From an uncultured archaeon (lineage in GTDB: Archaea > Thermoplasmatota > Penumbrarchaeia > JASLWR01), in contig CAYFHS010000033.1 of assembly GCA_964342815.1 (NCBI GenBank), forward strand, positions 16,597 through 47,871: a stretch of DNA of 31,275 nt, written 5' to 3'. Position 1 is the first letter of the stretch. Each line of letters starts with the position of its first letter. The position numbers and the translations under genes are program-made. Under the pieces are notes generated by a model that searched no databases, was not told where the DNA came from, and was given only the letters and a program-made list of their open reading frames with translations. Of the stretch, positions 5,551-21,172 are shown piece after piece.

Positions 5551-8500
5551 TCACTCGGTCAAATACCCCTGCTCGCCGCATGAGGAACAGACGACAACCG
5601 TTGGCCGTTCAGATGTTGATACAACGTTCGTTGCACTGCATACATGGCATTCTATCAATACAGGTTTTATATCGGACTTTCCGGCCTGCTCAACAGACGC
5701 ATCCGCTTCCACTTCTTTCATAGCCTCTTCGATGCCCGCATCGGCTTCTTTTATCTCAGCTTTTGCCGCCGATGGCCCGGGGGGCAGTGCTTTCTGGGCA
5801 GATGGTGCAGTAGGTAACTGCTGCTGGGGAGCACTCGGTTGTCCCTGCATTTCCTGCTGAAGTTTCTTTACCTGCTGCTGAAGCTGCTGATACTCCTGTA
5901 TCAGGGCCTGCCGCTGCTGAGGGTCCTTCGTTTGAGGCAGTTCGGTCTGGATCTCCGCAGCCCGTTTCTGTACCTTTTGATACAACTGCTTCACATGTTC
6001 CGGAAAGTCCTGCTGCTGGGGAGCTTGTGGCGGGCCTCGGGCTGTGGGAGGTGCGCCCGGTGGACCCGGCGGCCCTCCTCCGGGTGGTCCGGGCGGGCCG
6101 CCTCTGGGCGGTCCGGGTGGTCCCCTATGTTGTTCCTGCGGCCATGCCGGTTGCTGTACGGGTTGAGGTCCAACAGGGGAACCCTGCGGAACGTCACGGT
6201 CTTTTTTCTTCTTCACAACCATGATCACAGCTATCAATATCAGTCCGAGAACGACGAATCCGATAATGACTATTATCAACCACATCGGAATACCGCCTTC
6301 GTCACCACTGGCCAATTTAATATCCGGTTCGCCTAAAGGATGGGATTCGGCATCATTGGGATCTGTACCCTTCTCGTATTCCATTGAATTTGAATATCCA
6401 TCACCGTCAGGATCATCATCCTTTCCAGAGATTTCGGTACTATCGAAATATTGCTCCTCCCAGCCGTCGGGGATACCATCATCATCCTGGTCCAACTTCC
6501 AATTGGTCTCTTTATCCAGATCATACGGTTTTTCATGGCTGTTCCACTCATAGGTCGTTGTCCAGGCAACTGCACTTATCTTGTACTCGCGGCCGATCTC
6601 TCCATTAATGCTCATACCACCCGGAACCTCATCTTTTTTCACCTTATCTGTGTATTCATATTCGAGAACCCAGACATCTCCGTCCAATTCCGGATTTATG
6701 AAAAGAGCATAGTAATCGTCCCAGTACCTCGGGTCCTCCGGGAAATAGTTTTCAAGGTTATCAACGTCCATCAGGGGCGTCCATTCCAAATCCGAGGATT
6801 TATCTTTGACCCCAAAGTACAAGTCGATATGATCGATCTCATCCCCCTGAACCGATGCTGTCACCTCGATGTTGTAATTGTAGGTTATTCTCGCGTTCCG
6901 GTCATCAAGTTCGGAGACCAGTAGGGAAACATTTACCTTAGTTATCTCAATCTCCACTGCTATCTCAGGGGTCAGCTCCCGCGATGGGAGCTTCTGGGTC
7001 ATACCGGCCTCCGGGTCGATCAGGGGCTGAGGTTTTTCCAGATTGTTTATTGTAATTACTGGGCCGAAGTTGGACTGTTCCACCATTTTTTCATCATAAT
7101 TGTCATGGACGTCCACAGCCACTACCACCACGTAATATTTTGTCCAATCCTTAAGTGGGGCACCTCCAACAGATGTTACCGTCGTGGATGATGTGCTGCG
7201 GACATCAACGGTCTTGTCCGGTATCGTGGATTCAATATCCGAGATCACGGTCCTGGAAACGAAGATGGAATAATGATCGAAGTCATCAACAATGGTGGGA
7301 ATCCATGTGACCGTTATGCTCTTACCCTCGTCGTCCGGCGTATCCACCGCCGTCAACCCTGTCAATGCAGGAGGAGGTGTCAGGTCTTTGGCAATGGAAG
7401 TAGCTATATTCGACATAGGTCCCACATTTCCCTCTTCGTCCAAAGCCATTACGGTAAAATTGTGGATTTTTCCACTTTCGAGACCCGTAATCATCAACGT
7501 CTCCTTTTGTCCGGGGAAATCGGGATTGGGTATATCCTCTTTATTCGGCATGTCGAAGGCATTTATCAAGTCCGCCATATCCTCAATTTCCTCCCGCGAG
7601 CATTTGATTATATAATCCCTGGAAAGACCTTCCGCGCCGTCATCGCCCGGTGCTGTCCACTCGAGCTCCACCTCCCCGTCCTCCTCTCCCGGGACAGCTT
7701 CCAGGTCATCTATGGCACCCGGGGGATTGTGATCGGGGGCAAATGCCTTAACCACGTCGGACATATCCCCCTGCTGCTCGGCTTCGTCCAGTGCGACAAT
7801 TGCAAAGTAGTATTCAGTGCCGCTGGTCAATCCCGTAACGGTGAAGGCTTCGTCGCTGCCCGGATTTCCGGGATTGGGTATATCGTTCTTGTTCGGAACA
7901 TTCTTTGCATTCTCGAAAGATGCAAGGCTGGTAATGTCCCCGTCCGAATATTTTATTACATAGGAATCCGCTTTTCCCTGCTGGCTGTCCCCATCTTCGG
8001 CCACTGCTGTCCATGTCAGATTGATGGCTCCGTCGATTTTACCGTGCGGCTCAGCTTCCAGGTCGTCGATCTGCGCCGGTGGTTCGTCGGGGTCCACCAC
8101 CAGTTCCTGTGTAGTGACATCCGACCATGCCCCTTCACTGTCCTTTACCTTGAAGCCCACAGTATAGGTCCCATGGGACAGGGTGTCCGCCGTGATACTG
8201 GCTTGGGTTCCTAGCTCAATGACCGGACCTGTAGCTTTCTGTGCGGTCCATAGGTATCCTGACGTGGCATCGCCATCCTCTTCATCGGTACCATGTCCGG
8301 TGAATGTTATATCCACCAGTTCTCTGGCCGGACTCGGATCAATTGAATCGATGATGGCTACCGGCTTGTAGTTCGTAACATAATCAACATCCAATATCGG
8401 GCGCTGCGCTGCTGTTCCGTATTCTTTAGATCTGAAGAACTTGATGGCATCACTGCCGGAACTACCGATCAGTATCACGCCATTGTTAGTAATATCTCCA

Positions 8501-9231
8501 TTTACCCAGGCCTGGACAATATTCGTGACTGAGATCGTTGTCGTGCCGTAACCGGTATTGGGCGTGGCGCCGCTACCTGAGGGAGATCCGGCATAATCTC
8601 CACCGGATTGTGACCATGAGCTTGAACCGTCATAAGTGTTCCAGGTTGCGCCATCCGATGTGATGCCGCTCATGGATCCGGTCCCCTCCGTCCAGCTATG
8701 GGTCAGTGGGTTTGCCGTAATTGTCAGGGGGTCGTTAATACCTCCTTCTATAGGAGCTCCGGTCCCACCGTCGATGCCGTTGTAACAAAGATGATAGGTC
8801 AGTTTGATACTGGCCGAGGATATTTCCGCATTCGGTGGAATCGAAGTGATATCGAATTGGATGAGAACCCTGAACTGTTTCCAGTCCGAACTACTGTCGA
8901 GAGGTATTATAAGATCGGGGTCGCTTCCTATATTTGAATTCGTATCCGGCGGCGTACCACCCGTAAAACCGCAAATGGTGGTATCCTTCAAGGCACCGAA
9001 CGATTCTACCCGGGTTCCCTGCATCAGGGATTGATCATATGCTCCAGTGTGATAATCATTGACACTTTGATCACCACTTTTTATCCGAGCGTGATTATCT
9101 TGTGAGGCTTCATTTATTCCACGCAGGGGGATACCGCTGGTGAAAAATGCAATTATGATTAATATAGCCACGCTGGTAATTAAAAACCTTCCAAACCGAG
9201 TGTGTCCGTTTTCTCCGTTTATACCCATCAT
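5551..9231 (-). CDS. Large membrane-anchored surface protein: DNRLRE/disaggregatase-like domain, PKD/Ig, fibronectin type III repeats, TSP3-like Ca-binding motifs, TM helix, Pro/Gln-rich tail with coiled coil, C-terminal Zn ribbon
   Basis: N-terminal hydrophobic signal; 'FRVLIQFDITSIPPNAEISSASIKL...W.EGTG...ATW'; repeated 'P..I.DL.A....DG...L.WTA...Y.I.YS' FN3 units; DDDGIPDGWE / DPDGDGYSNSME; TM WLIIVIIGFVVLGLILIAVIMVV; CHVC...CSSC at the end. Confidence 0.88.
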   Translation of the reverse strand: MMGINGENGHTRFGRFLITSVAILIIIAFFTSGIPLRGINEASQDNHARIKSGDQSVNDYHTGAYDQSLMQGTRVESFGALKDTTICGFTGGTPPDTNSNIGSDPDLIIPLDSSSDWKQFRVLIQFDITSIPPNAEISSASIKLTYHLCYNGIDGGTGAPIEGGINDPLTITANPLTHSWTEGTGSMSGITSDGATWNTYDGSSSWSQSGGDYAGSPSGSGATPNTGYGTTTISVTNIVQAWVNGDITNNGVILIGSSGSDAIKFFRSKEYGTAAQRPILDVDYVTNYKPVAIIDSIDPSPARELVDITFTGHGTDEEDGDATSGYLWTAQKATGPVIELGTQASITADTLSHGTYTVGFKVKDSEGAWSDVTTQELVVDPDEPPAQIDDLEAEPHGKIDGAINLTWTAVAEDGDSQQGKADSYVIKYSDGDITSLASFENAKNVPNKNDIPNPGNPGSDEAFTVTGLTSGTEYYFAIVALDEAEQQGDMSDVVKAFAPDHNPPGAIDDLEAVPGEEDGEVELEWTAPGDDGAEGLSRDYIIKCSREEIEDMADLINAFDMPNKEDIPNPDFPGQKETLMITGLESGKIHNFTVMALDEEGNVGPMSNIATSIAKDLTPPPALTGLTAVDTPDDEGKSITVTWIPTIVDDFDHYSIFVSRTVISDIESTIPDKTVDVRSTSSTTVTSVGGAPLKDWTKYYVVVVAVDVHDNYDEKMVEQSNFGPVITINNLEKPQPLIDPEAGMTQKLPSRELTPEIAVEIEITKVNVSLLVSELDDRNARITYNYNIEVTASVQGDEIDHIDLYFGVKDKSSDLEWTPLMDVDNLENYFPEDPRYWDDYYALFINPELDGDVWVLEYEYTDKVKKDEVPGGMSINGEIGREYKISAVAWTTTYEWNSHEKPYDLDKETNWKLDQDDDGIPDGWEEQYFDSTEISGKDDDPDGDGYSNSMEYEKGTDPNDAESHPLGEPDIKLASGDEGGIPMWLIIVIIGFVVLGLILIAVIMVVKKKKDRDVPQGSPVGPQPVQQPAWPQEQHRGPPGPPRGGPPGPPGGGPPGPPGAPPTARGPPQAPQQQDFPEHVKQLYQKVQKRAAEIQTELPQTKDPQQRQALIQEYQQLQQQVKKLQQEMQGQPSAPQQQLPTAPSAQKALPPGPSAAKAEIKEADAGIEEAMKEVEADASVEQAGKSDIKPVLIECHVCSATNVVSTSERPTVVVCSSCGEQGYLTE

Positions 9232-9441
9232 GAGTCAGGCGCTCCTTTTCTATAAAAATAAACTCGAAATTCAAAGAGAAAAATACCTCCGTCTAATAGA
9301 ATTGCATATTATTAAAGATTACTATGCACTTTTACTAGGAAAAAACCTGATATTCATATGGGAGAGCTACAAAAAAATTTAAAATAATTGATTACGGGAT
9401 ATAGAATTCACGGTACGGAAGCGGGGGCCAGGTGGAAAATA

Positions 9442-9639
9442 TTATTCCTTGAACTTGTAACGGTAGGATTTTCCAGGTGAGTTCGTCCTTCCATACATCA
9501 CTTCGTCGCTTTCTCTCAATTTTTTCAGGGACATAGTGACAGCACCCTTTCCGATCCCTATCGCCCGGCTTATCTCGTTTGACGTGAACCACTCGCCGGG
9601 GTGGTTTTGAAGAAATTCGTAGACTTCTTGCTGTCCCAT
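9442..9639 (-). CDS. Small winged helix-turn-helix protein (65 aa)
   Basis: 'VYEFLQNHPGEWFTSNEISRAIGIGKGAVTMSLKKLRESDEV' is a typical wHTH pattern; TATA-like box 26-35 nt upstream. Confidence 0.8.
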   Translation of the reverse strand: MGQQEVYEFLQNHPGEWFTSNEISRAIGIGKGAVTMSLKKLRESDEVMYGRTNSPGKSYRYKFKE

Positions 9640-9664
9640 GAATAAACGGGAACATATTCTCAGA

Positions 9665-9675
9665 CTTATATTTAT
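9665..9675 (-). promoter_or_regulatory. Probable TATA box of the small wHTH gene (leaderless spacing)
   Basis: Minus strand ATAAATATAAG located ~26-36 nt upstream of ATG 9639. Confidence 0.4.
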
Positions 9676-9836
9676 GGGAGATAAATTTTGTTACGGAAAA
9701 TAACGATGGGCATTTTTTTATGGGTAAAAATCGGGTAGATATTGAAAAAATCTCTCGTTTCATTATCTTCATTGGAGGCATCATTTAGCCGAATGAACTG
9801 CACTAAATATAACGGTTTTGGGCGATCATTGTCCCT

Positions 9837-10250
9837 TCAGGATATCGAATGATGTCCCTCCATCATTTTATTTGCTTCATGGATTTCATTGATTCTGATT
9901 CTTTTATCGTAAACAATGGCTTGAGCAAAGGCCACAGAATTGCTATGAGATAGACTAACCTGCATTACAAGATCATTTGTGTCATCTAAATTCACCTTTA
10001 CCATTGGAACACCGTTGGCATCGTTCAATATCTCGATATTTTCCACCCGCGCTTCTACTTTACGGTGTGACAGTGCCTTTACCATTGCTTCTTTTGCGCA
10101 AAACCTGGCAGCCAAATGCTTCTTTGGATCCGCTCTGCTGAAACAATATTCTATTTCATTTGGAGTGAAGATCCGCTCGAGGAACTTGCGATCATCAATT
10201 ATCTTTTGAAAACGCTCGATCTCCTCACAATCCACGCCTATGGAAATCAT
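9837..10250 (-). CDS. acpS: Holo-[acyl-carrier-protein] synthase (AcpS-type phosphopantetheinyl transferase)
   Basis: MISIGVDCEEIERF (GxD), RIFTPNEIEYC, HLAARFCAKEAMVKAL (FxxKEA), VQVSLSH-like 'MQVSLSHS'. Start moved to ATG 10250 by family length. Confidence 0.92.
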   Translation of the reverse strand: MISIGVDCEEIERFQKIIDDRKFLERIFTPNEIEYCFSRADPKKHLAARFCAKEAMVKALSHRKVEARVENIEILNDANGVPMVKVNLDDTNDLVMQVSLSHSNSVAFAQAIVYDKRIRINEIHEANKMMEGHHSIS

Positions 10251-10443
10251 CCAAACAACATCCGTTTGATAGTATCTCGCCGGTTTAAAAGAACCGAACA
10301 AAACTTATATTCTTTTTGGTCAAACATCGGGTAACGAATGACTTCGACAAATCAGAAATTATAAATATTGAGATACTATTCCAGCACGACGGTGAGCCGA
10401 TGCTAGCTAATCTCTTTGAAGAACAGAATCATGGAGATAATAA

Positions 10444-10911
10444 ATGAGATTTTTCTTGATCGATCGAGTCGAAGAAATTTGCTATGAAAAATACATCACA
10501 GCAATTAAATGCATAACCCTTTCCGATGACGTTTTCGAACATCATTTCCCACGGTACCCCGTATTTCCCGGAAGCCTGCTCATTGAAGGGTTGGCCCAAT
10601 TAAGCGGTATGTTTCTTGAATTGATTTTGAAGAAAAATCAACTTCCTCCCAAACTTTCGTTCCTCTCCATAGTGAATAAAATGAAATTCCGCAAACCCGT
10701 CCTGGCCGGTGATCGTGTTTTTATGAGGGCAGATATTGTTTCGCTGAGGGAGGATTACGGAGTCGTCAAGGTATTAGCCGAGATTGATGGCGAAGTTGTT
10801 GCCGAAGGGGAGCTTACATTCGCCTTTCTGAGCCTGGATGATGAGAAACTACATCAATCACGGATGGAATTTTATGAAATATGTATGAAAAATGCGAGAG
10901 AAGTTTCATGA
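10444..10911 (+). CDS. fabZ: FabZ/FabA-family 3-hydroxyacyl-ACP dehydratase (hotdog fold)
   Basis: 'FFLIDRV', 'HHFPRYPVFPGSLLIEGLAQ' (His/Glu dyad), 'KFRKPVLAGD'; GGAG SD upstream. Confidence 0.88.
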   Translation: MRFFLIDRVEEICYEKYITAIKCITLSDDVFEHHFPRYPVFPGSLLIEGLAQLSGMFLELILKKNQLPPKLSFLSIVNKMKFRKPVLAGDRVFMRADIVSLREDYGVVKVLAEIDGEVVAEGELTFAFLSLDDEKLHQSRMEFYEICMKNAREVS

Positions 10912-11498
10912 AAGTGACATTTGATTCTTACAAACCCGGCGAAGAAATTCCCGTGGTTCAATATCTCAAGAACAGAAAACTGAGAAAATATTTCAATCGC
11001 GAAACCGAGGCCGCCCTTGTCGGGCTTGGAAAGTTGACCCGGAAGATTGAACTAACTCCGGAAACACCGTTCTATTATGCAACCGGGGTGATGGAATATC
11101 AAGATTACGGCCTTGAGGAAATTGTCAAGAACAGTACCGATGGGACAGGTGATTTCTCTCACAAACTCTTTATTGAAGAAGCCATTCCAAGAGTATCACC
11201 GTTAAATTTATTCAAGGTACTGCAGAATATGGCATTGAGCTTTATCGCCATAGAACACAATCTTGTAGGGGATAATGCGGTCATTTATGCCTCTGCATCC
11301 GGTCTGCTACTTCTGGCTTTGCATTCTTTATCCAATAATCCAATGCTTCTGGGGGCCAGCAAAACCTATAAAGACGGAAAAGTCGAGGCCGGATTTGCAT
11401 ATGTAGTGAAGGAGGAAATTGAGAAATCTCCCTTTTTATACGGCACGGAGAAGGCAGTAGATATGTTTCGATCATGGGCAACAAACCGAGGGGATTGA
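10908..11498 (+). CDS. Truncated, catalytically dead ketosynthase-like protein (N-terminal KS half; chain-length-factor-like)
   Basis: ATGA overlap with the fabZ stop. 'SPLNLFKVLQNMALSFIAIEHNLVGDNAVIYASASG' resembles the KS 'P....M.N......I.....GPN....ACASG' with Cys replaced by Ser. The C-terminal His-His half is absent. Confidence 0.65.
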   Translation: MKVTFDSYKPGEEIPVVQYLKNRKLRKYFNRETEAALVGLGKLTRKIELTPETPFYYATGVMEYQDYGLEEIVKNSTDGTGDFSHKLFIEEAIPRVSPLNLFKVLQNMALSFIAIEHNLVGDNAVIYASASGLLLLALHSLSNNPMLLGASKTYKDGKVEAGFAYVVKEEIEKSPFLYGTEKAVDMFRSWATNRGD

Positions 11499-11500
11499 TC

Positions 11501-12706
11501 ATGGGCAGAGTGGTGATTACTGGAGTGGGAGCGGTATCCCCTATAGGAAATAACTTCGAAGAAGTAATGGAAGGGATTCGAAATGGGAAAAGGGGGATCG
11601 GGACAATTCAAAGTATTGACCCCTGTCATTTACCCGGCAATGTTGGTGCGGAAGTAAGGAAAAATGGAAAACCTCTCCTGACCGAATCTCATATTGACCG
11701 GAAAGAGATATTTATCACTCAGGCTCTAGATGAACTTATTAAAGGGTACGGAAGGATCCATCGGTACCCTCCGGAAAAGAGATTCATGCATATGGGCGCA
11801 GGGCACGATTATCTGGATCTGATCGGATATACCAATAATCACGATGAAGCCGCGGGTAATTGGATCAATTATTCAAAGAGCGGCCATATTATAGTGAAAG
11901 AGCTTTCCAAAGTTCATGAAATCAAGGGCGGATTCAGCGTCAATGTGACCACATGTGTCGCTGCCACCCAGGCCATGGGAACTTCTTTCAGGCTGCTGAA
12001 ACAGTTATCCGCAGGGAATATTATTATTACCGGTGGTTTTGATTCCGTAATCAATCATTTGCACTATATGGCTTTTTACAAACTCGGAGCCATGTCAAAC
12101 TGGAAGGGAGAGCCGGGTCATGCCTGTCGTCCTTTCGATAAAAATCGGTCCGGATTGGTTTTGGGGGAAGGAGCGGGAGTTTTTCTGCTGCAAGATGCCG
12201 AAGATATGGCTGCCGGGGAAGGTCTTGCGGAGATAGTGGGGTACAGCTCCACAATGGATGCTTACAAGGTAACGGACCCCCACCCTCAGGGAAAACATCT
12301 GGCCAGAGCTGCCGTAAATGCCATTGAAGAAGCAGGGTTGAGATCTGCCGATATTGATTGCGTGCACCTGCATGGGACCGGCACATATAAAAATGCCATT
12401 GCCGAAACGAATGCCATGCAACAGATATTTCCCGAGCGCTGGGCTGAAATCCCGGTGTTCTCCATGAAAGGACAGATCGGTCACCTAATTGGGGCATGCG
12501 GCGCCCTTGAAATGATTGGTGTGATATATTCATTAAAATATCAGCTGGTACCGCCCACCGTCAATTTCAGCGAACAGGCCCCCGAGGCCCCCCTGCTGGT
12601 CATTAAGGATAAACCTCTGGAAATGAAAATAGACCATATACTGAAATTAAATTCTGCCTTCGGAGGGCAAAACAGTGCGTTAGTGGTGAAAAGATATGTC
12701 GAATAG
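11501..12706 (+). CDS. fabF: Beta-ketoacyl-ACP synthase (FabF/FabB family)
   Basis: RVVITGVGAVSPIG; catalytic Cys in 'VTTCVAATQA'; 'CRPFDKNRSGLVLGEGAG'; His in 'HGTGT' and 'KGQIGHLIGACG'; 'NSAFGGQN'. Start set at ATG 11501, 2 nt after the upstream stop. Confidence 0.9.
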   Translation: MGRVVITGVGAVSPIGNNFEEVMEGIRNGKRGIGTIQSIDPCHLPGNVGAEVRKNGKPLLTESHIDRKEIFITQALDELIKGYGRIHRYPPEKRFMHMGAGHDYLDLIGYTNNHDEAAGNWINYSKSGHIIVKELSKVHEIKGGFSVNVTTCVAATQAMGTSFRLLKQLSAGNIIITGGFDSVINHLHYMAFYKLGAMSNWKGEPGHACRPFDKNRSGLVLGEGAGVFLLQDAEDMAAGEGLAEIVGYSSTMDAYKVTDPHPQGKHLARAAVNAIEEAGLRSADIDCVHLHGTGTYKNAIAETNAMQQIFPERWAEIPVFSMKGQIGHLIGACGALEMIGVIYSLKYQLVPPTVNFSEQAPEAPLLVIKDKPLEMKIDHILKLNSAFGGQNSALVVKRYVE

Positions 12707-13415
12707 AATCATAATTACCGGTGCCAGTTCAGATATTGGCCTGGCCATTTGCAAAGCGATCATAAAAAAGGGGGATCAGGCTGTTTTGCAGTACTACAAG
12801 AATAAAGAAAAATTAATTCCATTATGTGAGACGTTAGGGGATAGCTGTCAGATGATATCCGTAAATTTTAATGAGGGGCGCGAGCTTAGCAGGTTTTCAA
12901 AAAAACAAAACGATGTAGATATCCTGATCAATGCGGCGGCAGTTACCAAAACAGATCTCCTACCGGTCTTGAAAGATGAAGATATCATGCGCATGATCAA
13001 CGTCAATATTCTCTCCACCGTGAAAATGTGCCGAGCAGTGATACCAAGCATGGTGGCGAGGAGGAAGGGATGTATTGTCAATATTTCATCCGTGGCCGCT
13101 AAGAGAGGTATCAGAGGGCAAAACGTATATGCCGGAACGAAAGGATTCATCGAATCCTTCTGCCGGGCAATGGCTGCCGAATACGGCAGCAGAGGCATAC
13201 GTTTAAATAATGTCGCACCAGGGCCCATTGAGGCTGGAAGTTTAATGGAATTACTGGGTTACGGTAAAGATGAAGTTAAAAAAAGCATGGTTTCAAAAAG
13301 GCTTGGAACGCCTGAAGATGTGGCGGCAGCTGTGGCTTTTTTATGCAGTGACAAGGCCTCATACATAAATGGTAAAACCATCTCTGTGGATGGAGCATTT
13401 TGCAGGGGTGTTTAA
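12696..13415 (+). CDS. fabG: FabG-like SDR (3-oxoacyl-ACP reductase family), copy 1
   Basis: TGASSDIG (variant Gly motif), NISS, YAGTK (YxxxK), 'NNVAPGPI', 'RLGTPEDVA..V.FL.SD.ASYING..ISVDG'. Confidence 0.85.
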   Translation: MSNRIIITGASSDIGLAICKAIIKKGDQAVLQYYKNKEKLIPLCETLGDSCQMISVNFNEGRELSRFSKKQNDVDILINAAAVTKTDLLPVLKDEDIMRMINVNILSTVKMCRAVIPSMVARRKGCIVNISSVAAKRGIRGQNVYAGTKGFIESFCRAMAAEYGSRGIRLNNVAPGPIEAGSLMELLGYGKDEVKKSMVSKRLGTPEDVAAAVAFLCSDKASYINGKTISVDGAFCRGV

Positions 13416-13419
13416 CAAA

Positions 13420-13995
13420 ATGGCATCCAATTATGAGAATCTGAAAACTATTTGCCTGAGTAGAAGAAGTGTTAGAGAATTTGCCCAGAAAAATGTTTCC
13501 GCCGAAGACATTGAAAAGATAAAGACAATCGCTTACACCTCACCATATGCATCCAACCGAAAAAACTGGGAATTAGTTGTCGTAACAGATAATATGCAAA
13601 TCGGAAATATAGTAGATCTGGTGGGAAAAAGTATAAACGATCTTGGAATGAAGGTCAGAGAAGATTTGCGGGAAGGATTCTCACAATACGCAGCTCATTT
13701 CACCGAATTTGGAACGGCCCCTGCTTTGATCATTCCAACGTTCAGGATATCTCCGGGATTATCAGTAATGCTCAACGATCCGAAAGAGAATTTTGTCCGG
13801 TGGGAACGAGACAATTATGTAAAATCCATTTCCTGTGTGGCCATGCTGGTTCTTCTGGCGGTGGAAAGCCTGGGATTGGTCGGATGCTACATGACCGGTC
13901 CACTTCTTGCGGAGAAGGAAATCGGGGATATGATAAATATTAAAAAAGGTAGAAATATAGGAGCGATGATTCCCATAGGATATCGTCAATGGTGA
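13420..13995 (+). CDS. Nitroreductase-family FMN-binding oxidoreductase
   Basis: 'RRSVREF', 'PYASNRKNWELVVV', 'LLAVESLGLVGCYMTG', 'IPIGY'. Start set at ATG 13420, 4 nt after the fabG stop. Confidence 0.85.
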   Translation: MASNYENLKTICLSRRSVREFAQKNVSAEDIEKIKTIAYTSPYASNRKNWELVVVTDNMQIGNIVDLVGKSINDLGMKVREDLREGFSQYAAHFTEFGTAPALIIPTFRISPGLSVMLNDPKENFVRWERDNYVKSISCVAMLVLLAVESLGLVGCYMTGPLLAEKEIGDMINIKKGRNIGAMIPIGYRQW

Positions 13996-14044
13996 AAATC
14001 TCGATAATCCCCACGGGCTCATGGAGATTTGCAGCTTGACAATG

Positions 14045-14221
14045 TTCGCGGAATCGGGGCCTGCAGGTGCCTGAAGAACAAGTTCTTCTGCACCCTATTG
14101 GAATCTCTGATTCTATGTCGGGGAACTTTTTGTTCCAAAGGGCTCAGGAGTATCTTTGATGCCTCGGAATGTAAAGGGAACCCGAAGGGCCGATTCCGCT
14201 GAATACTTGGGAGGATCAAGA
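14045..14221 (+). promoter_or_regulatory. Structured intergenic element upstream of the ACP gene (candidate cis-regulatory RNA or MITE)
   Basis: Perfect 10-bp inverted repeat GCGGAATCGG (14048-57) / CCGATTCCGC (14190-99) enclosing hairpins at 14066-14094, 14101-14113, 14122-14136 and 14181-14189. Confidence 0.5.
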
Positions 14222-14222
14222 C

Positions 14223-14615
14223 ATGGATGTTGAAGATAAATTGAGGGAAATCCTGTTACCCGTTTTTGGACTGATTACTATCGATGAGATCAAACCGGAA
14301 CATTCATTTGTCAACGACCTGGAAGTGGACAGCCTTGATTTCATTGAGATCATGCACCTGATAGAAGTAAATTTTGGAGTGGTGATCACCCAGGACGAGA
14401 CCCTGATAGGAGGACTTAAAATCGACAAGGCCATGTTGTTCGAGGACGGTTTGTTAACCAGTGAAGGAGAGGGGCTGTTGAAAGAGAACTATCCCAAAAG
14501 AAAGGGCGACCTGAGATCGGGGATGACTAAAATCGACCTTTTTTCATTGATCACTGTCCAGGACCTTGCAAACATCATCAAAGAAAAGTTAAAGGCCAAA
14601 AAAGATAGTGAGTGA
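14223..14615 (+). CDS. acpP: Acyl carrier protein, extended type (130 aa)
   Basis: 'DLEVDSLDFIEIMHLIEVNFGV' with Ser37 in the DSL phosphopantetheine site; C-terminal 'ITVQDLANII'; ~50-aa insertion between them; GGGAGG SD. Confidence 0.9.
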   Translation: MDVEDKLREILLPVFGLITIDEIKPEHSFVNDLEVDSLDFIEIMHLIEVNFGVVITQDETLIGGLKIDKAMLFEDGLLTSEGEGLLKENYPKRKGDLRSGMTKIDLFSLITVQDLANIIKEKLKAKKDSE

Positions 14616-14638
14616 ACTGGCTGGTCACAGGAATTTTC

Positions 14639-15361
14639 ATGCTTAAAAACAAGATCGTATTTGTATCCGGCGGCTCCGGTTACCTGGGTTCTGCAATTTG
14701 TGAAAGGTGTGCCTATTATGGGGCAACGGTATATTTCTCATATTACAAAAATAAAGATCAAGCTGAAACAATGATGGAGCGGATCGAGGGATCGAAAGGA
14801 ATTAAGATCAACTTGAAGGACGTCCGGGATATTGAGGATAAGATAGAACAACTTCATAAAGAGATCGAAGGAGTGGATATCCTGGTGAATAACGCCGGAG
14901 TCAGTCAGATCATGCCGTTCCCCATGCTTGAAGAAGATGACGTGGATTTTATGATGGACTTGAATATCAAGGGTACGATTTTTCTTACTAAATCCATTAC
15001 CAGAAGAATGATAAAGCTCAAGCATGGTTCAATTGTCAATATTGGTTCAATTGCAGGACACCGCATGCTCGATGTGCCCGTACACTATGCTGTGACAAAG
15101 GCTGCAATGGCCGGGTTCACTTATTCTCTGGCCGCCCAGATGAAAAGGTATGGAATAAGAGTAAATTCCGTTGTCCCCGGTCTTCTGGAAGATGGGGTGT
15201 CGCGAGGAGTGCCAAAGGAGCTGCTGGAAGACTATCTGAACCACTGTTCTGTTGGCCGTCCGGGAACCGGTAAGGAAGTGGCTGAAGCGGTCTGTTTTCT
15301 GGCCTCAGACCGGGCGAGCTATATCAATGGACAGAATATCTTTGTTGATGGCGGTCTCTGA
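14639..15361 (+). CDS. fabG: FabG-like SDR (3-oxoacyl-ACP reductase family), copy 2
   Basis: SGGSGYLG, LVNNAG, NIGSIAG, YAVTK (YxxxK), 'RVNSVVPG', 'ASYINGQNIFVDGG'. Start could be GTG 14612 or ATG 14639. Confidence 0.85.
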   Translation: MLKNKIVFVSGGSGYLGSAICERCAYYGATVYFSYYKNKDQAETMMERIEGSKGIKINLKDVRDIEDKIEQLHKEIEGVDILVNNAGVSQIMPFPMLEEDDVDFMMDLNIKGTIFLTKSITRRMIKLKHGSIVNIGSIAGHRMLDVPVHYAVTKAAMAGFTYSLAAQMKRYGIRVNSVVPGLLEDGVSRGVPKELLEDYLNHCSVGRPGTGKEVAEAVCFLASDRASYINGQNIFVDGGL

Positions 15362-15376
15362 TAGAGGTTATTAATT

Positions 15377-16801
15377 ATGAAAACGGAAATCCTTCATTCT
15401 GAAACCAGGGCTTTGTGCCCTTCCTGCCGGGAGATTGTCAATGCTTCCATTATAGAAAAGGAGGGGCGGATCTACCTCAAGAAAATGTGCGAGGAGCACG
15501 GCGTTAGTTATGCTCTGACCTGTTCCGATCCCGAATGGTATCACGAGAGCACGAATTACGTGAAACCCGGCCAATCTCCCCTGGGCCTTAGTGTAAAGGA
15601 ATTCAAAGGCTGTCCAGATTCTTGCGGTCTTTGCCCGGAACATCAACAACATACATGCCTTCCAGTCATCGAAATAATGAGCGGCTGCGATATGGAGTGC
15701 CCAATATGTCTGAAAGATTTCGATAAATCCTTTCAAATGACGAAAACGGAGTTTAGAAATATCCTAAAACGGCTAAAAGCCTATGAACCGGACCTTAATG
15801 TAATTAATTTGAGCGGGGGCGAGCCGACCCTTCATCCTGAATTGGAAGAATTCCTGAAAATATCGGCAGAGGAAAACATCAACCAGGTAACTGTTTCCAC
15901 CAACGGGGTCAAATTATTAAACGACAAAAGGCTCAGGGAAGTTTTTAGGGAAACCGGTACCATTGCCTCTCTCCAGTTCGACGGTTTTCTTCCCCAAACC
16001 TATGAACGGTTGCGGGGTCGGGACCTTTATGATCAGAAAAAAAAGATCATTGCGGCCCTGGAAGAAGACAGCGTCAAATATTCTTTGGTTACCACTGTTG
16101 CCAAGAATATCAACGACCATGAGATAACGGATATTGTGGATTATTTTTTTCACTCCAAGGCTCTCAGTTTGATGTTCCAACCTGCAACTTTTACCGGTAG
16201 AGCCGCCGCCAATGACTTCGATCCCGATACGCTCCGCATCACGATCCCCGATATTGTCAGGGAGATCGAAAAAAACGAGAATGTCAAAAAGGGCGATTTC
16301 AATCCCATCCCCTGCTCTCACTATTCATGTTTTGCAGTATCATATTATTTAAAAGGTAAAGGTGACCCTGTTGGCTCCCCTAACTTGTCAGATGGTGACC
16401 TTACAAGCGATGATGAAAAGTATGTGAATATGAAGGACCTTTTGGGCCAAGACAACTTTATCAACATCCACACCAACCGCACATATCCGGGATTGGATGA
16501 AGAAGGATTTTCAATAATACAGGAGAGAATCTTTGGATTGTGGTCGGCGTCTGACTCCAGTGACGTCAATCAGAATGTTCTAAAGAGAATTCGCAGTATC
16601 TTTAACCAGCTCAATCGTGACTGTTTTTCTTCAAAAGAGGTTTTCGAAGAGGGGTCCAAATCCATGAAGAGCATATTCATTCACCAGCTCATGGATGTCC
16701 ACACTCTCGATATTGCCCGCCTGAAAAAATGCTGCAACCATTATGCTCTGGGAGACGGCCGCATAATACCAATGTGCGCCCAGAATGTTTTTTTCCAGTA
16801 A
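15377..16801 (+). CDS. Radical SAM protein of the tetraether lipid synthase (Tes/GDGT-MAS, MJ0619-like) family
   Basis: N-terminal CPSC...CEEHG; auxiliary GCPDSCGLCPEH; CDMECPIC radical SAM motif; GGEPTLH; TNG; LQFDG; FQPATFTGR; RITIPD; C-terminal 'HQLMD...D..RLKKCCNHY...GRIIPMC..N'. All match the Tes architecture as recalled. The family call is firmer than the function. Confidence 0.8.
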   Translation: MKTEILHSETRALCPSCREIVNASIIEKEGRIYLKKMCEEHGVSYALTCSDPEWYHESTNYVKPGQSPLGLSVKEFKGCPDSCGLCPEHQQHTCLPVIEIMSGCDMECPICLKDFDKSFQMTKTEFRNILKRLKAYEPDLNVINLSGGEPTLHPELEEFLKISAEENINQVTVSTNGVKLLNDKRLREVFRETGTIASLQFDGFLPQTYERLRGRDLYDQKKKIIAALEEDSVKYSLVTTVAKNINDHEITDIVDYFFHSKALSLMFQPATFTGRAAANDFDPDTLRITIPDIVREIEKNENVKKGDFNPIPCSHYSCFAVSYYLKGKGDPVGSPNLSDGDLTSDDEKYVNMKDLLGQDNFINIHTNRTYPGLDEEGFSIIQERIFGLWSASDSSDVNQNVLKRIRSIFNQLNRDCFSSKEVFEEGSKSMKSIFIHQLMDVHTLDIARLKKCCNHYALGDGRIIPMCAQNVFFQ

Positions 16802-16815
16802 TTTTATTATTCGCA

Positions 16816-17859
16816 TTAGCGCATCAGCATTATATTGTAAAATATCTTCAATACGCCCAAGGGCGAACTGCCGACGTAAGCGATATGTCCCTTGGAAGTA
16901 CTGAGATTCACATCCACATCCTTACCGCTATTTGACAGTTCTTTACGTATATTCAAGGTCTCTTCGGCTGAAATGAGCTTGTCCCCGGCTGCGTGCATCA
17001 GGAAAACCCGGGCTTTTATATCGGAGAGATATGAATTTAGGGAGAGATCCAATTTACACAATTGATCCGCCCGACTCATCCACCAATCAAAAACAGGACC
17101 CTCGGTGCTTTGCTTACCCAATCTTTTTATGAGCCTCTTCTCCTCCAGAGTGAAGTTATCCTCCCTCTTGCAGTAATCCGCCAATATCCCCTGAAGCAAA
17201 TTGGTATCATTTTGAGAAAGTTCTAGACATTCTCTTGCGCCCAAGGACAGGACAAGTCTAGCATAAATATCCGAGTCAGGATCGGTTAGTACCCTTTTCA
17301 TGAGGTTTTCCAAGGAGTAATAGGCCCCTGCCGCGAGAACAAAACCAACATTTTCCCTGACCTTTTCCATAGCTGAGAGAATTAGCCCATAGGTTGCGCC
17401 TGCCGAGAAGCCTATGATCCCGAAAAATTTGTGGTTCTTACTTATGGACTCTGCCATTTCCACCAAGGTTTCGATATCTTTGAAACGGAAGTCCAGGTTC
17501 GTCATGCCTTCAAGGTGAGGGGTATATACCTCGAAACCGCATAACGCCAGGTTATGTGCAAAATGTACAAGCCTCGGATCGTTGTAACCTTTGGGAGATA
17601 AACCATGGAGGACGAACAATGGGTACGAGCTGTTCTTTCCCGTATAGCATCGACTTTTATCAGTCCACTTATGATCAAAGTCCTTGACCCGGATTCGGTT
17701 GCGCAGGATCCTACCAAGACCGGCGTGAAGGGAAAGCATGTAAGCTGTATGAATTGCGGATCTAAATCTATCTCCCTGTTGTTTGGCCGTAATATGTTCA
17801 TCTCCTTGCTCGATTTTTCTTCCGATAATATCCCTGATTGGTGATTTAAATTTTTTCAA
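16816..17859 (-). CDS. Alpha/beta-hydrolase fold protein (possible esterase/thioesterase)
   Basis: 'VLHGLSPKGYNDPRL', nucleophile elbow GFSAG, 'MHAAGDKLIS' (Asp) and 'GHI' (His). TTG start is uncertain. Confidence 0.75.
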   Translation of the reverse strand: MKKFKSPIRDIIGRKIEQGDEHITAKQQGDRFRSAIHTAYMLSLHAGLGRILRNRIRVKDFDHKWTDKSRCYTGKNSSYPLFVLHGLSPKGYNDPRLVHFAHNLALCGFEVYTPHLEGMTNLDFRFKDIETLVEMAESISKNHKFFGIIGFSAGATYGLILSAMEKVRENVGFVLAAGAYYSLENLMKRVLTDPDSDIYARLVLSLGARECLELSQNDTNLLQGILADYCKREDNFTLEEKRLIKRLGKQSTEGPVFDWWMSRADQLCKLDLSLNSYLSDIKARVFLMHAAGDKLISAEETLNIRKELSNSGKDVDVNLSTSKGHIAYVGSSPLGVLKIFYNIMLMR

Positions 17860-17960
17860 ATGAAATTTGATCGGAAGAAAGAACGAACTAATAAATCTAT
17901 GAAGTCAATTAATGGTAAACTCTTAAAAGTATGATGAATGGTCACGAGGACGTCGTGAAC

Positions 17961-20879
17961 ATGTTTTACATTATCATTGGACTGGCAATAGCATTGTCGG
18001 TAAGCGTCGGGCTGCTGGCCTTGAAACACAGAGTGATCTGCAGACTTGGTCTCCGGAATATAAACCGTCGGAAAAAGACCTCCGTTCTGATTATTATGGG
18101 TCTTATGATAGGGACGGCACTGATCTCGAGCTCCATGGTGATCCAGGATACGATGTATTACACCTTCAGAAAGGTGGCATATGACCACTTAGGTGAAATA
18201 GATGAAACAATTACGAGTATGGAGTCCAACGGAACATATCGATTTTTCGACTATTCTGTTTACGAGATAGTTACCACCGAAATTAACTGGGCCGATAATG
18301 GCAATATCGACGGTATCGCACCGCAGATACAACTGGAATTACCAGTATACGACGTCAACAGAGATCTTGCTGAGCCGAATGCCTTGATCGTGGGATTCAA
18401 TGCCTCCATCGAGGAGGATTTCGGAACTGAGGAAAACTCATTTCGAACATTACGGGGGAAAAAGATTGACGGGAGCGGGCTAGGAGAAAATGAAATAATC
18501 ATGAACGAATTGTGTGCAGAAGAACTGAGTGCACAAAATAACGACAGGATCATCATATACTATGGTCGGACCGAACTAAACTTTACCATAAGAGATATTG
18601 TAGAAAACACCGGCTTAGCCAATTTCAAGGAAAAACCGATGATATTCTTGCGGCTTGAAACACTCCAGAACCTATTGGAACTTGGAAACCGGATAAATTT
18701 CATCAAGATATCGAATCGAGGCGGCGTAGAGGACGGAAATACTTATACTCAAAACGTCCGGGACGAACTTCTTACGATCCTCGATCTAAAAATCAATAGC
18801 ACTTTGGAACTGGAAGTCGAATCGGCCAAGCAGAATGCGCTGGATAACGCAAGAGAGATCAGCGAATTCATGGGAGATGTGTTCACCATAATGGGCACGT
18901 TCGTGGTGGTTGCGGGCCTGGTACTGGTAATATTGATCTTCGTAATGCTGGCGGAAGAGCGCCGGACCGAGATGGGCATCGCAAGGGCCATTGGGATGAA
19001 TAGAAATAAATTGATGTTGGCCTTCCTGTTCGAGGGTTTCATATACTCCATCGTCGCCGTCATTATCGGAGCCGTTGCGGGGCTGGCTATCAGCTATATA
19101 ATTTTATACCTTCTGGAAATGAGAACCGAAATGATATTCTATTTCGAGAACTCGAGCATACTGCTGTCCATCTGCCTGGGGCTTGTGAGCACGGTAATGA
19201 TGATAATGCTTTCTTCGTGGATGATATCGAAAATAAATATCGTAAGGGCCATAAGGAAGATACCGGAACCAATGGTCCGGGGGCAAAAACGCATTTTTTT
19301 ACCCGTCGGCCTCATGCTCATGGTGACCGGAATAATCCTCACGGTGATGGGCGTCATCCGTCACATGGACCAAGGGGTCCAGTCCGATGTGATATTGGTG
19401 TGGGGTCCGGTGGTGACCGCGCTTGGAATTACCTGTACTATTTTCATATATCTCTCGCCCCGGATGCTTTTTTCTTTCGCTGGAATCTGGATGGTCTTCT
19501 GGGCTTTGAATCCCTTTATGGTATACAAGGGCACCGGACCCGAAATGTTCATCAGTTCGGGGTTGATCCTGGTCCCGGGCGGAGTTTTACTTTTCGTTTT
19601 CAATTCGGATTTTTTTCTGCGCGGGCTGGACCGATTGTTCGGGATGGGAAAAAAAAGGAAGAATCTTCCTGCCATGAGGATAGGCATATCCTACCCAATG
19701 AAGAAGCGTTTCCGTACGGGAATGATATTGATCATTTTCACAATGGTAATATTTGCCACCTCCGTGGAAGCCATATTCACTCATCTTGAAATGGAAAGTG
19801 TCAGGAGAACTCCGGGAAAACAGGCAGGTGGTTATGATCTTTTATGTACCGTAAACCCATTGAAACCCATAACGAATCTATCGGAAAGACTGGAAATCTC
19901 AGATATAATCGATAAGGAGAATTTCAACGCATTCACCCCTATCACCGCGGTAAATACTATGGTTCACAAACAAGAAGGAAACGGAAAAACGGTGGACGCA
20001 CCCTATCGAATTCTGGGTGTTGACAATGATTTTCTTGAAAACAACCGATATACCTTCCATGCACAAGATACGCGGTATTTAAGTTCCCGGGATATATGGA
20101 AAGCGGTTAGGGAAAATGCGTCCCTCGCCGTAATAGACCGAAGCGTTGTAAAGGTTGAGTGGGATCCCTTTTTCGGGCCATTCACCGCAGGGGTGGGAGA
20201 TGTCATCTCAGTTCTGAATCCTGCCGGAAGCTACGTGAACGTGACCATAATAGGTGTACTCGACATGTTCATGGTACCCGGAAGCCTTGGGATCTATATA
20301 TCGCAGGATTTCGTCCGATCAAATTTCAAGATATTGAATGAGAATATGTACCTCGTAGATGTTGCAGAAAGTGCGGATGTCCGAGAACAATCCAGATTGC
20401 TGGAACGGGAATTCATGCCAAACGGTCTGGAAGCTAAAGTAATCATGGATGATGTGAACATGTTTCTCAATGCTGAAAAATCCATAGTAACGCTGATGCA
20501 GGGTTATATGGCCGTTGGTCTAGTGGTAGGGATCGCCGGATTGGGAATAATCACCATCCGCTCGGTGGTGGAGAGAAGAAGAGAAATTGGTATCTTGAGA
20601 TCCATTGGTTTTACCCGGAAAATGGTTATAAAATCATTTCTGATAGAGAATATATTCGTTGTGGCTGTGTCATGTTTACTGGGTATAATCATGGCCATTG
20701 GTATCGGCTACAAGGTCTATCTCAAGATGTTTCTGGGGGACGTGCCGTTTCTGTTACCGTGGCTTACTTTTCTTGTTTTTTCCATCATAGCATTATTCGG
20801 AACGACTATTACCAGTATTCCGCCGGGAAGAAAAGCCGCCAGGATACCCCCGGCCGAAGCGACGCGATACATGGAATAA
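17961..20879 (+). CDS. FtsX/MacB/LolE-type ABC transporter permease (duplicated FtsX domains)
   Basis: 'LRNINRRKK.S.LI..GL.IG', 'LAEERRTEMGIARAIGMNR..L...FL.EG', 'SVVERRREIGILRSIGF....V...FLIE'; two large extracytoplasmic domains. ATG 17961 preferred; no ATPase gene adjacent. Confidence 0.9.
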   Translation: MFYIIIGLAIALSVSVGLLALKHRVICRLGLRNINRRKKTSVLIIMGLMIGTALISSSMVIQDTMYYTFRKVAYDHLGEIDETITSMESNGTYRFFDYSVYEIVTTEINWADNGNIDGIAPQIQLELPVYDVNRDLAEPNALIVGFNASIEEDFGTEENSFRTLRGKKIDGSGLGENEIIMNELCAEELSAQNNDRIIIYYGRTELNFTIRDIVENTGLANFKEKPMIFLRLETLQNLLELGNRINFIKISNRGGVEDGNTYTQNVRDELLTILDLKINSTLELEVESAKQNALDNAREISEFMGDVFTIMGTFVVVAGLVLVILIFVMLAEERRTEMGIARAIGMNRNKLMLAFLFEGFIYSIVAVIIGAVAGLAISYIILYLLEMRTEMIFYFENSSILLSICLGLVSTVMMIMLSSWMISKINIVRAIRKIPEPMVRGQKRIFLPVGLMLMVTGIILTVMGVIRHMDQGVQSDVILVWGPVVTALGITCTIFIYLSPRMLFSFAGIWMVFWALNPFMVYKGTGPEMFISSGLILVPGGVLLFVFNSDFFLRGLDRLFGMGKKRKNLPAMRIGISYPMKKRFRTGMILIIFTMVIFATSVEAIFTHLEMESVRRTPGKQAGGYDLLCTVNPLKPITNLSERLEISDIIDKENFNAFTPITAVNTMVHKQEGNGKTVDAPYRILGVDNDFLENNRYTFHAQDTRYLSSRDIWKAVRENASLAVIDRSVVKVEWDPFFGPFTAGVGDVISVLNPAGSYVNVTIIGVLDMFMVPGSLGIYISQDFVRSNFKILNENMYLVDVAESADVREQSRLLEREFMPNGLEAKVIMDDVNMFLNAEKSIVTLMQGYMAVGLVVGIAGLGIITIRSVVERRREIGILRSIGFTRKMVIKSFLIENIFVVAVSCLLGIIMAIGIGYKVYLKMFLGDVPFLLPWLTFLVFSIIALFGTTITSIPPGRKAARIPPAEATRYME

Positions 20880-20929
20880 TGATATCTTGATAATTACGTT
20901 GGTAAATTTCATAATATCGCCGAGATGGA

Positions 20930-21172
20930 CTATTGTACAACGGGATTCAATGGCATCACCCCGTTATGTCTTACCTTTTTCGCCCCGTACTCCCGGAGTA
21001 TTCCCTCTCTGTCATCAGGTCTTATTCTCAGTACTATCCCGCAATCGGAACTGATGTGCCGGGGAGTTGGTATGCATCTAACTGAAAATCCGGCTTTCCT
21101 TGCCACCTGTTCACCTCGAATGGCGAGGCTCGTGGAATCGAAAATAATGACAAAATAGTCGGTGTCATCCAT
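20930..21172 (-). CDS. DUF3343-family small protein (putative S/Se carrier)
   Basis: 'IIFDSTSLAIRGEQ......F.VRCIPTPRHISSDCGIVLRI' matches the F.S...A......IP.PR.IS..CG pattern; directly follows the desulfurase. Confidence 0.8.
   Translation of the reverse strand: MDDTDYFVIIFDSTSLAIRGEQVARKAGFSVRCIPTPRHISSDCGIVLRIRPDDREGILREYGAKKVRHNGVMPLNPVVQ

Follow-up and report, generated by a model that had tools for sequence, protein, structure and literature searches.

The nine-gene locus and its products

The window analyzed here is a stretch of 31,275 nucleotides (nt) of the contig CAYFHS010000033.1 (positions 16,597 to 47,871; assembly GCA_964342815.1) from the metagenome-assembled genome (MAG) of an uncultured archaeon that belongs to a Thermoplasmatota genus of the marine, low-oxygen water column. 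The window begins right after a 100-N scaffold gap and contains zero N itself. The list of open reading frames (ORFs), Pfam and NCBIfam scans, and the translations identify, at positions 9837–16801, nine intact genes for a type II condensing system that depends on an acyl carrier protein (ACP). The acpS gene is divergent from an eight-gene operon (hereafter, the cassette) that encodes, in this order, a FabZ-like dehydratase, a short protein denoted X196, a ketosynthase (KS), a reductase from among the short-chain dehydrogenases/reductases (SDRs; KR1), a nitroreductase-fold protein, a long ACP, a second SDR (KR2), and a radical SAM enzyme. The initial annotation had described this divergent arrangement of intact genes with intact catalytic motifs, and both points are borne out. 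It had also described the operon as tightly coupled. The successive junctions are −4, +2, −11 and +4 nt, a 227-nt gap, −4 or +23 nt, and +15 nt; all of these are overlaps or few-nucleotide gaps as claimed, with the exception of the 227 nt that precede the ACP gene, which the description passes over. Between acpS and the operon lies an AT-rich region (10251–10443) in which two TATA-like boxes and a GGAG sequence 8 nt before the ATG of the dehydratase gene can be read, so that a promoter role may be envisaged. A scan for sigma-70 promoters and terminators yields 27 promoter-like sites versus 17.7 expected and 7 terminator-like sites versus 8.6 expected, but it is uninformative for an archaeal host.

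The core of the cassette is a pair of genes encoding KS-related proteins. The KS itself (11501–12706, plus strand, 401 amino acids (aa), PF00109 and PF02801) is an elongating beta-ketoacyl-ACP synthase with a Cys-His-His triad; C152, H291 and H328, as well as K323, are invariant across 19 orthologs. Its best match in PDB is FabF (E-value 7e-60), and the score against the FabF equivalog model TIGR03150 is 268 bits, below the cut-off of 493.75. X196 (10908–11498, plus strand, 196 aa; the start at 10908 follows from the alignment of 26 homologs) has no Pfam or NCBIfam match. The AlphaFold2 (AF2) model of this protein, with a predicted local distance difference test score (pLDDT) of 87, adopts the thiolase fold of a KS, of which it covers the N-terminal half. 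A Foldseek search identifies as the closest solved structure ApeC, the chain-length factor (CLF) of the Acinetobacter aryl-polyene KS-CLF complex (PDB entry 7F28), followed by FabF and by other CLFs, and the structural look-alikes of X196 in the Atlas agree with the KS/CLF match. The sequence similarity to ApeC is about 12%, and the alignment of the homologs contains no conserved cysteine or histidine. By fold and alignment, X196 is a truncated, non-catalytic, CLF-like protein that corresponds to the N-terminal domain of a KS. The earlier label of a dead half-KS fits this description, although the length is 196 aa and not 205 aa.

A predicted complex of the KS with X196 reaches an ipSAE interface score of 0.95 compared to 0.00 for the best control; 58 of 80 solved complexes pass the mark applied to this score, as do 2 of 110 mismatched pairs. 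The contacts agree between prediction runs by at least 95%, the pLDDT of the partners is 90–91, and the predicted interface is formed on the strand beside the active-site cysteine, as in KS dimers. Because the ApeO-ApeC complex has already been solved, this result is taken as a likeness and not as proven binding. With that qualification, the KS is predicted to pair with the catalytically dead half-KS as a KS-CLF heterodimer.

The remaining enzymes that could act on the beta-carbon are the dehydratase, the two SDRs and the nitroreductase. The FabZ/ApeI-like 3-hydroxyacyl-ACP dehydratase (10444–10911, plus strand, 155 aa, PF07977 with the E-value of 3e-20) scores 111 bits with the FabZ equivalog models, below their cut-offs, and its close orthologs bear precomputed matches to PF22818 (ApeI-like). 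KR1 (12696–13415, plus strand, 239 aa) and KR2 (from 14639, or from a GTG codon at 14612, to 15361, plus strand, 240 aa) match adh_short_C2 with E-values of 4e-47 and 3e-51, respectively; the FabG-like matches of KR1 are below the cut-offs. Both SDRs carry the classical YxxxK motif rather than Yx6K, and on this ground their assignment as enoyl reductases of the FabI or FabL type is rejected. KR1 is absent from several proteobacterial and Treponema cassettes, which would fit redundancy with the host FabG, and KR2 is universal, being found in each cassette whose sequence extends that far. The nitroreductase-fold flavoprotein (13420–13995, plus strand, 191 aa, PF00881 with the E-value of 3e-19, with weak matches to the C-terminal domain of FbiB) is kept in all complete cassettes examined and is the sole candidate for an ene-reductase in the cluster; alternatively, it could be a dehydrogenase.

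The ACP (14223–14615, plus strand, 130 aa, PF00550 with the E-value of 1e-8) contains Ser37 within the motif D-S-L-D-F; this residue is invariant in 20 orthologs of 119–137 aa, all of which share a structured insert of about 45 residues before helix IV; in the AF2 model (pLDDT 87), helices I-III are followed by the insert and then by helix IV. The AcpS-type 4'-phosphopantetheinyl transferase (PPTase; 9837–10250, minus strand, 137 aa, PF01648 with the E-value of 3e-17) scores above the cut-offs of both TIGR00556 (86.6 versus 45.35) and TIGR00516 (68.7 versus 59.8), in agreement with the original view that the pathway comes with a PPTase of its own. The listed TTG start at 10301 probably lies too far upstream, and the ATG at 10250 is the likely start. 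No ortholog of this AcpS was seen in the flanks fetched around the bacterial cassettes that are discussed below; outside the cassette, it is most closely related to housekeeping AcpS proteins of bacteria, one of which (46% identity) is encoded next to polA. In a 12.9-kb contig of the ENA assembly ERZ24794666, an AcpS with 59% identity is encoded divergently from the same cassette, which is followed by an extra radical SAM protein of 348 aa; this contig may come from a further host devoid of a housekeeping AcpS.

The last gene of the operon (15377–16801, plus strand, 474 aa, PF23545 and PF04055) encodes a radical SAM enzyme of the Tes/GDGT-MAS family, with a HMPTM-type Zn-ribbon, the CX3CX2C motif and a C-terminal cysteine motif. 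It aligns with the PDB entry 7TOL over the full length (residues 7–472) with the E-value of 2.6e-57. The score against the Tes equivalog NF045702 is 270.2 bits, short of the cut-off of 450. TrsS (NF045646), for which the score is 259.9 bits with a cut-off of 490, is ruled out as an identification. No radical SAM gene of the host MAG, which is 89% complete, reaches the Tes equivalog cut-off, the best one being the cassette enzyme itself. With this enzyme as the sole Tes-like gene of the MAG, surveys that score Tes matches as potential for production of glycerol dialkyl glycerol tetraethers (GDGT) could mis-score such genomes. Tes makes C(sp3)-C(sp3) bonds by way of an intermediate in which carbon is bound to sulfur on an auxiliary cluster (PMC13459092), and accordingly the first guess for the reaction here is C-C coupling or cross-linking of an acyl chain. 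An assignment of the locus to the cispentacin (Amc) pathway is ruled out by scores far below the equivalog cut-offs (AmcF, 166.8 versus 325; AmcE, 40.4 versus 140; AmcB, 26.9 versus 80).

Archaeal residence and bacterial ancestry

The cassette shares a gapless stretch with archaeal genes, as had been pointed out at the outset: 5S rRNA (30666–30786), the 3' end of 23S rRNA (30931–31275) and egsA (29560–30528), which scores 442 bits against the cut-off of 413 for the glycerol-1-phosphate dehydrogenase equivalog. The contig JASLWR010000026 of a sister MAG, "Thermoplasmatota archaeon ETNP2_MAG_1", is collinear with the window over positions 3–20879 at about 83% nucleotide identity and over positions 27927–31275 at 87%, and contains, some 10 kb away from the cluster, an archaeal 23S rRNA that is complete (2700 bits). 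The same flanks surround the cassette in two JGI metagenome contigs, and four ENA assemblies, one of them with a contig of 148,689 bp, encode an identical AcpS among the same neighboring genes; besides the sister MAG, the arrangement is thus present in at least five more assemblies. Four marine sequencing runs (with four study codes, two of the runs being near-identical) evenly cover positions 5000–24500 at about 100% identity, with pieces that bridge the AcpS-FabZ and the radical SAM-hydrolase junctions; these are low-depth Logan contigs in short pieces, so that they attest to even cover and local bridging and not to a single spanning read. In tetranucleotide composition, the cluster and the remainder of the genome correlate at 0.92, and random 7-kb pieces average 0.90. 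The contig integrity, for which a check had been proposed from the start, is supported by these independent lines, and a chimeric assembly is effectively excluded.

The 227-nt gap before the ACP gene (13996–14222) also ties the operon to its host. A blastn search shows that a repeat of about 180 nt with conserved ends, resembling miniature inverted-repeat transposable elements (MITE), is dispersed genome-wide; other contigs of the host MAG contain at least 20 partial copies of it, and the assembly graphs of the four runs branch here, at 14024–14205. The gap is absent from the JGI relative and from the bacterial cassettes, which indicates that a mobile element of the host landed inside the operon. 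A dispersed repeat is a simpler reading of this segment than a dedicated riboswitch-like element.

The relatives of the cassette are bacterial. X196 has 75 homologs, all of them unnamed. Their gene neighborhoods, together with a scan of species-representative genomes, reveal that the order FabZ, X196, KS, (KR1), nitroreductase, long ACP, KR2, radical SAM recurs in more than 30 bacterial MAGs from about 12 phyla. The groups include Rifleibacteriota, Fibrobacterota, Bacteroidota/Kapaibacteria, Ignavibacteriota, Pseudomonadota, Campylobacterota and Nitrospirota as well as Spirochaetota, Chloroflexota, Elusimicrobiota, Actinomycetota, Aminicenantes and Rokubacteria. Bacterial cassettes usually open with a gene for a fusion of a NifS-type cysteine desulfurase with a rhodanese and usually encode two Tes/TrsS-like radical SAM enzymes, of which the second is the ortholog of the enzyme in the window. 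Frequent additional genes encode DUF1571 (LolA-like) proteins, hexapeptide acyltransferases, PAP2, methyltransferases similar to PEMT or ICMT, and further radical SAM proteins. Collectively, the genes added in bacteria, the NifS-rhodanese and the extra radical SAM enzyme included, point to a membrane lipid, possibly a sulfur-containing one, as the product in bacteria.

A tree of six concatenated cassette proteins (31 rows, 1324 columns; quick IQ-TREE search with the posterior mean site frequency (PMSF) model) joins the window, the sister MAG and a JGI contig in one clade, a sister to the cassette of CP070757, a genome labeled Candidatus Aminicenantes. The latter proteins show 68–80% identity each to those of the window, the first radical SAM gene is missing there as well, and a bacterial-type signal peptidase I is encoded nearby. 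The archaeal and CP070757 sequences together are nested among the bacterial copies, with SH-aLRT support of 98–100. A profile of X196 finds only 2 of the 401 Thermoplasmatota genomes, both from the genus of the window (1 of the 162 genera; 1 of the 262 high-quality genomes). Thus, both the phylogeny that had been called for and the narrow distribution are in accord with the proposal that the cassette was horizontally acquired by the archaeon from the bacterial radiation, which these observations support.

The copies have since been maintained. All nine ORFs are intact in three diverged archaeal lineages, and within the archaeal lineage the ratio of nonsynonymous to synonymous substitutions (dN/dS) is 0.07–0.19 for the eight cassette genes and 0.19–0.28 for AcpS. 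The synonymous divergence (dS) of the cassette and AcpS, 0.3–0.96, is similar to that of the flanking host genes, 0.45–1.25. Taken together, these values indicate that the acquisition predates the split of the lineages and that the genes have been under purifying selection ever since, in keeping with the early suggestion of an intact pathway.

Downstream of the operon, in convergent orientation, is a gene for an alpha/beta-hydrolase (16816–17859, minus strand, 347 aa; weak matches to DLH, FSH1 and Hydrolase_4). It is syntenic in every archaeal copy, a homolog adjoins the FabZ gene in two bacterial loci (L030 and L053), and its dN/dS is 0.15–0.18; a role as a thioesterase or acyl-release enzyme is plausible. 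In the 148.7-kb contig of the ENA assembly ERZ17294083 (L080, 2407–3435), which represents a near-identical genome, the 347-aa hydrolase is annotated as two separate ORFs, of 79 and 229 aa, possibly because of a frameshift or an assembly error. The next gene encodes a MacB/FtsX-type duplicated permease (17931–20879, plus strand, 982 aa, PF02687 and PF12704, with ADOP, MacB and LolCE-like matches below the cut-offs). It is syntenic in the archaeal copies only; the protein is possibly an exporter, and its tie to the cassette is uncertain.

Farther away, an operon on the minus strand (20930–24465) encodes an EF2568/SclA-type cysteine desulfurase (21173–22342), a TusA-DsrE protein, YedF (186 bits with the selenium-metabolism equivalog, for which the cut-off is 110), and a radical SAM-SPASM-TusA fusion. 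The sister MAG has other DNA in place of the entire 20.9–27.9 kb segment, in which the GC content drops to 33% at 27–28 kb; the segment is therefore best regarded as a variable island unrelated to the cassette. The idea that this operon is the missing sulfur module of the cassette is ruled out both by the subfamily of the desulfurase, EF2568/SclA and not NifS-rhodanese, and by the sister MAG, where the operon is absent from the syntenic position. Directly adjacent to egsA and the rRNA genes is a gene for a protein of the benzoate-CoA ligase family (27996–29546, plus strand; 651 bits versus the cut-off of 375), which the sister MAG retains in this location.

Missing functions and the proposed pathway

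Scans of the window with Pfam and NCBIfam models detect no FabD, FabH, acetyl-CoA carboxylase (ACC) or recognizable enoyl reductase, as stated in the initial annotation, and the cluster encodes no FabI, FabK, FabL, FabV or acyltransferase. The description of the cluster as self-contained is not entirely correct, given that it includes no malonyl-CoA:ACP transacylase (MCAT). The single acyltransferase (AT) domain of the host genome, PF00698, is part of a PfaA-like megasynthase on another contig (C41:18692–28300; positions 1693–11301, minus strand, of the locus L077; 3202 aa), in which the order of the domains is PfaA-like as well, ACP-KS-AT-ACPn-KR-DH, with tandem ACPs followed by ketoreductase (KR) and dehydratase (DH) domains. 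For PF08541, the genome has a single match, to an ORF of 367 aa that lies upstream on the scaffold and probably encodes HMG-CoA synthase. A potential source of malonyl-CoA is a single-chain ACC with an ACC_central domain on the contig C13; this is a eukaryote-style protein in which the biotin carboxylase, the biotin carboxyl carrier protein, ACC_central and the carboxyltransferase are encoded in one ORF of at least 1783 aa (positions 3566–8917, minus strand, of the locus L078). A second PPTase, of Sfp size, is encoded on the contig C4.

The premise that archaea generally lack ACP and AcpS is, as it turns out, weak in this phylum. PPTases of the PF01648 family are encoded in 138 of the 401 Thermoplasmatota genomes (50 of the 162 genera), in many cases inside ORFs of more than 3000 aa, and type I KS domains in giant ORFs are present in 21 of the 24 genomes of a related family of the same class; outside the phylum, KS-CLF matches have been reported for other archaea (PMC10132072). 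Hence carrier-protein biochemistry is not rare in Thermoplasmatota, and secondary-lipid synthases or synthases similar to those for polyunsaturated fatty acids (PUFA) seem to be common in these archaea.

The interpretation that we consider probable is that the locus, in an archaeal chromosome, is a working copy of a conserved biosynthetic cassette of bacteria and was acquired horizontally. Under this scenario, AcpS would phosphopantetheinylate Ser37 of the dedicated long ACP, and malonyl units would be drawn from malonyl-CoA made by the single-chain ACC of the host and loaded without a cluster-encoded transacylase, either by the PfaA-like AT acting in trans or through self-loading of the ACP. 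The KS and X196, which are predicted by fold and complex modeling to resemble ApeO-ApeC, would elongate the chain and set its length, and the two YxxxK SDRs together with the ApeI/FabZ-like dehydratase would process the beta-carbon. The nitroreductase might, speculatively, reduce the enoyl group; otherwise, the chain would stay unsaturated as in aryl polyenes. The radical SAM enzyme of the Tes/GDGT-MAS family would then functionalize an unactivated carbon of the acyl chain, the likeliest reaction by homology being C-C coupling or cross-linking, with a C-S intermediate bound to the cluster. Finally, the alpha/beta-hydrolase could release or transfer the product, and the MacB-like permease might export it, both roles being speculative. 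The product would be a specialized lipid or a lipid-like metabolite and not a bulk membrane fatty acid.

Several considerations weigh against this interpretation. The function of the cassette is predicted from the genes, and given that the KS, FabZ, Tes and TrsS scores are below the NCBIfam equivalog cut-offs, the specific activities are extrapolated. No standalone MCAT is present in the MAG, which is 89% complete, and none is encoded in the cluster; neither is there a recognizable enoyl reductase, both SDRs being of the YxxxK type. Compared to most bacterial cassettes, the archaeal one is without the NifS-rhodanese and the first of the two radical SAM enzymes, so that the archaeal product may be different or incomplete. 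The prediction of the KS-X196 complex may owe its score to prior exposure of the model to the solved ApeO-ApeC structure. As for the evolutionary part, all the genomes compared are MAGs, the tree comes from a quick search and is midpoint-rooted, and the bacterial identity of CP070757 rests on the label given by the submitter and on one neighboring gene.

The other explanations differ in what they make of the same observations. An assembly or binning artefact, in which a bacterial contig was misjoined to archaeal DNA, might be suspected from the bacterial relatives of the cassette and from the 100-N scaffold gap just before the window. It is, however, extremely improbable because the window is gapless, both junctions recur in the sister MAG, the two JGI contigs and the four ENA assemblies, a host repeat lies inside the operon, the composition matches that of the host, and the cassette has co-diverged with its flanks. 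A silent relic of the transfer that has lost expression or function in the archaeon would account for the missing MCAT, NifS-rhodanese and first radical SAM genes and for the repeat inserted between the nitroreductase and ACP genes. Against this view, the nine ORFs are intact in three lineages, with dN/dS of 0.07–0.28 at dS of 0.3–0.96, and the catalytic residues are conserved, which makes it very improbable. Only slightly more credit is due to a housekeeping fatty acid synthase (FAS) of type II that would supply bulk membrane fatty acids and make the organism a hybrid across the "lipid divide". Although ACP, AcpS, KS, KR and DH are all encoded and the genome includes ACC, the cluster contains no FabD, FabH, FabI/K/L/V or acyltransferase, the KS and FabZ fall short of the equivalog cut-offs for FabF and FabZ, a truncated CLF-like partner is predicted for the KS, and the same cassette is an accessory island in many bacterial phyla that presumably already have FAS II. 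These facts, along with the Tes-like radical SAM enzyme, favor the specialized pathway over bulk synthesis, as envisaged in the initial annotation.

The reaction of the radical SAM enzyme leaves room for two more specific proposals. The main rival to C-C coupling, although of rather low probability, is that the Tes-like enzyme goes no further than the C-S stage, so that the ACP-bound chain is thiolated, by a logic similar to that of lipoate or biotin formation, to yield a thiol or thioether lipid or a cofactor. The mechanism of Tes does pass through a C-S bond to the auxiliary cluster (PMC13459092), and in bacteria the cassettes open with the NifS-type desulfurase-rhodanese and encode two Tes/TrsS-like radical SAM enzymes, with ICMT/PEMT-like methyltransferases recurring nearby. 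The NifS-rhodanese is nevertheless absent from the archaeal cassette; the desulfurase encoded at 21173–22342 is of another type, EF2568/SclA, and is missing from the syntenic place in the sister MAG; and a dedicated NifS could simply supply Fe-S clusters. We know of no sulfur-inserting member of the Tes family, which also counts against thiolation. An unlikely but consequential variant of the coupling reaction is that the Tes-family enzyme joins or cross-links unactivated carbons of the fatty-acyl chains that the KS-CLF pair builds on the long ACP, to produce bolaform or membrane-spanning lipids or, in those bacteria that possess the NifS-rhodanese, thiolated ones. If so, there would exist an unrecognized route by which the "bacterial Tes homologues" make unusual lipids, the archaeon would have imported a fatty-acyl lipid module along with an AcpS of its own, and the finding would bear on the origin of lipids similar to branched tetraethers and on the permeability of the lipid divide.

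The broader interpretation, a functional bacterial cassette acquired by an archaeon, makes this locus one of the best-supported cases of a complete type II condensing system, with discrete enzymes and an ACP, that is fixed, and evolves under purifying selection, in an archaeal chromosome. It also shows what the archaeon needed to add (AcpS) and what was dispensable (the NifS-rhodanese and one radical SAM enzyme) for running a bacterial carrier-protein pathway.

Comparison with known systems

Literature searches, the coverage of which is incomplete so that they do not prove novelty, retrieved no description of this combination of genes, and the conserved bacterial cassette of KS-CLF, long ACP and Tes-like radical SAM enzyme is apparently undescribed. 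KS-CLF matches have been recorded in MAGs of Candidatus Methanoperedenaceae in a catalogue of type II polyketide synthases (PKS) from 2023 (PMC10132072). As described there, these come from a different archaeal phylum and are full-length CLF matches obtained with a CLF model; that report includes no cassette, AcpS, synteny or integrity analysis, and the comparison is by description only.

The closest parallel for the condensing module is the aryl-polyene (APE) system, a highly reducing type II PKS, which consists of the ApeO-ApeC KS-CLF, the ApeI/ApeP dehydratase, the ApeQ reductase and the ApeE/F ACP. The two systems share a discrete KS with a truncated, non-catalytic KS-like partner, an ApeI-like dehydratase of the FabZ family, an SDR reductase, a dedicated ACP, and the lack of an enoyl reductase. 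In contrast, the archaeal cluster has no machinery for an aryl starter and no genes for APE attachment or export, the scans detecting no adenylation, ammonia-lyase or LolA/glycosyltransferase-type APE genes, its ACP has the insert of about 45 residues, and the nitroreductase and the Tes-family radical SAM enzyme are core members. Bacterial type II FAS (FabF, FabG, FabZ, AcpP, AcpS) draws on the same families, with the same Cys-His-His triad, the D-S-L motif of the ACP and an AcpS-type PPTase; the cassette differs in that it has no FabD, FabH or FabI/K/L/V, that a heterodimer of its KS and the dead half-KS is predicted, and that additional tailoring genes are included.

In the anammox ladderane clusters (amxACP, amxFabZ and FabF homologs), the acyl chain is thought to be remodeled by radical SAM enzymes (PMC13459092). 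Judging by the description, these clusters resemble the cassette in combining a dedicated ACP-dependent, FAS-like set with radical SAM proteins, whereas the radical SAM class (B12-dependent), the taxa and the gene order are different, and no pair of a KS with a truncated CLF has been reported. The radical SAM enzyme of the cassette instead aligns end-to-end with Tes/GDGT-MAS (MJ0619, 7TOL), with which it shares the Zn-ribbon, the radical SAM domain and the C-terminal cysteine motifs. Tes belongs to the synthesis of isoprenoid ether lipids, unlike the cassette enzyme, which is encoded in an acyl-ACP operon of bacterial origin. The widespread cassette ties radical SAM enzymes of the Tes family to a dedicated pair of KS-CLF and ACP and offers a concrete, testable context for the "bacterial Tes homologues" that are discussed in connection with lipids of the branched GDGT (brGDGT) type.

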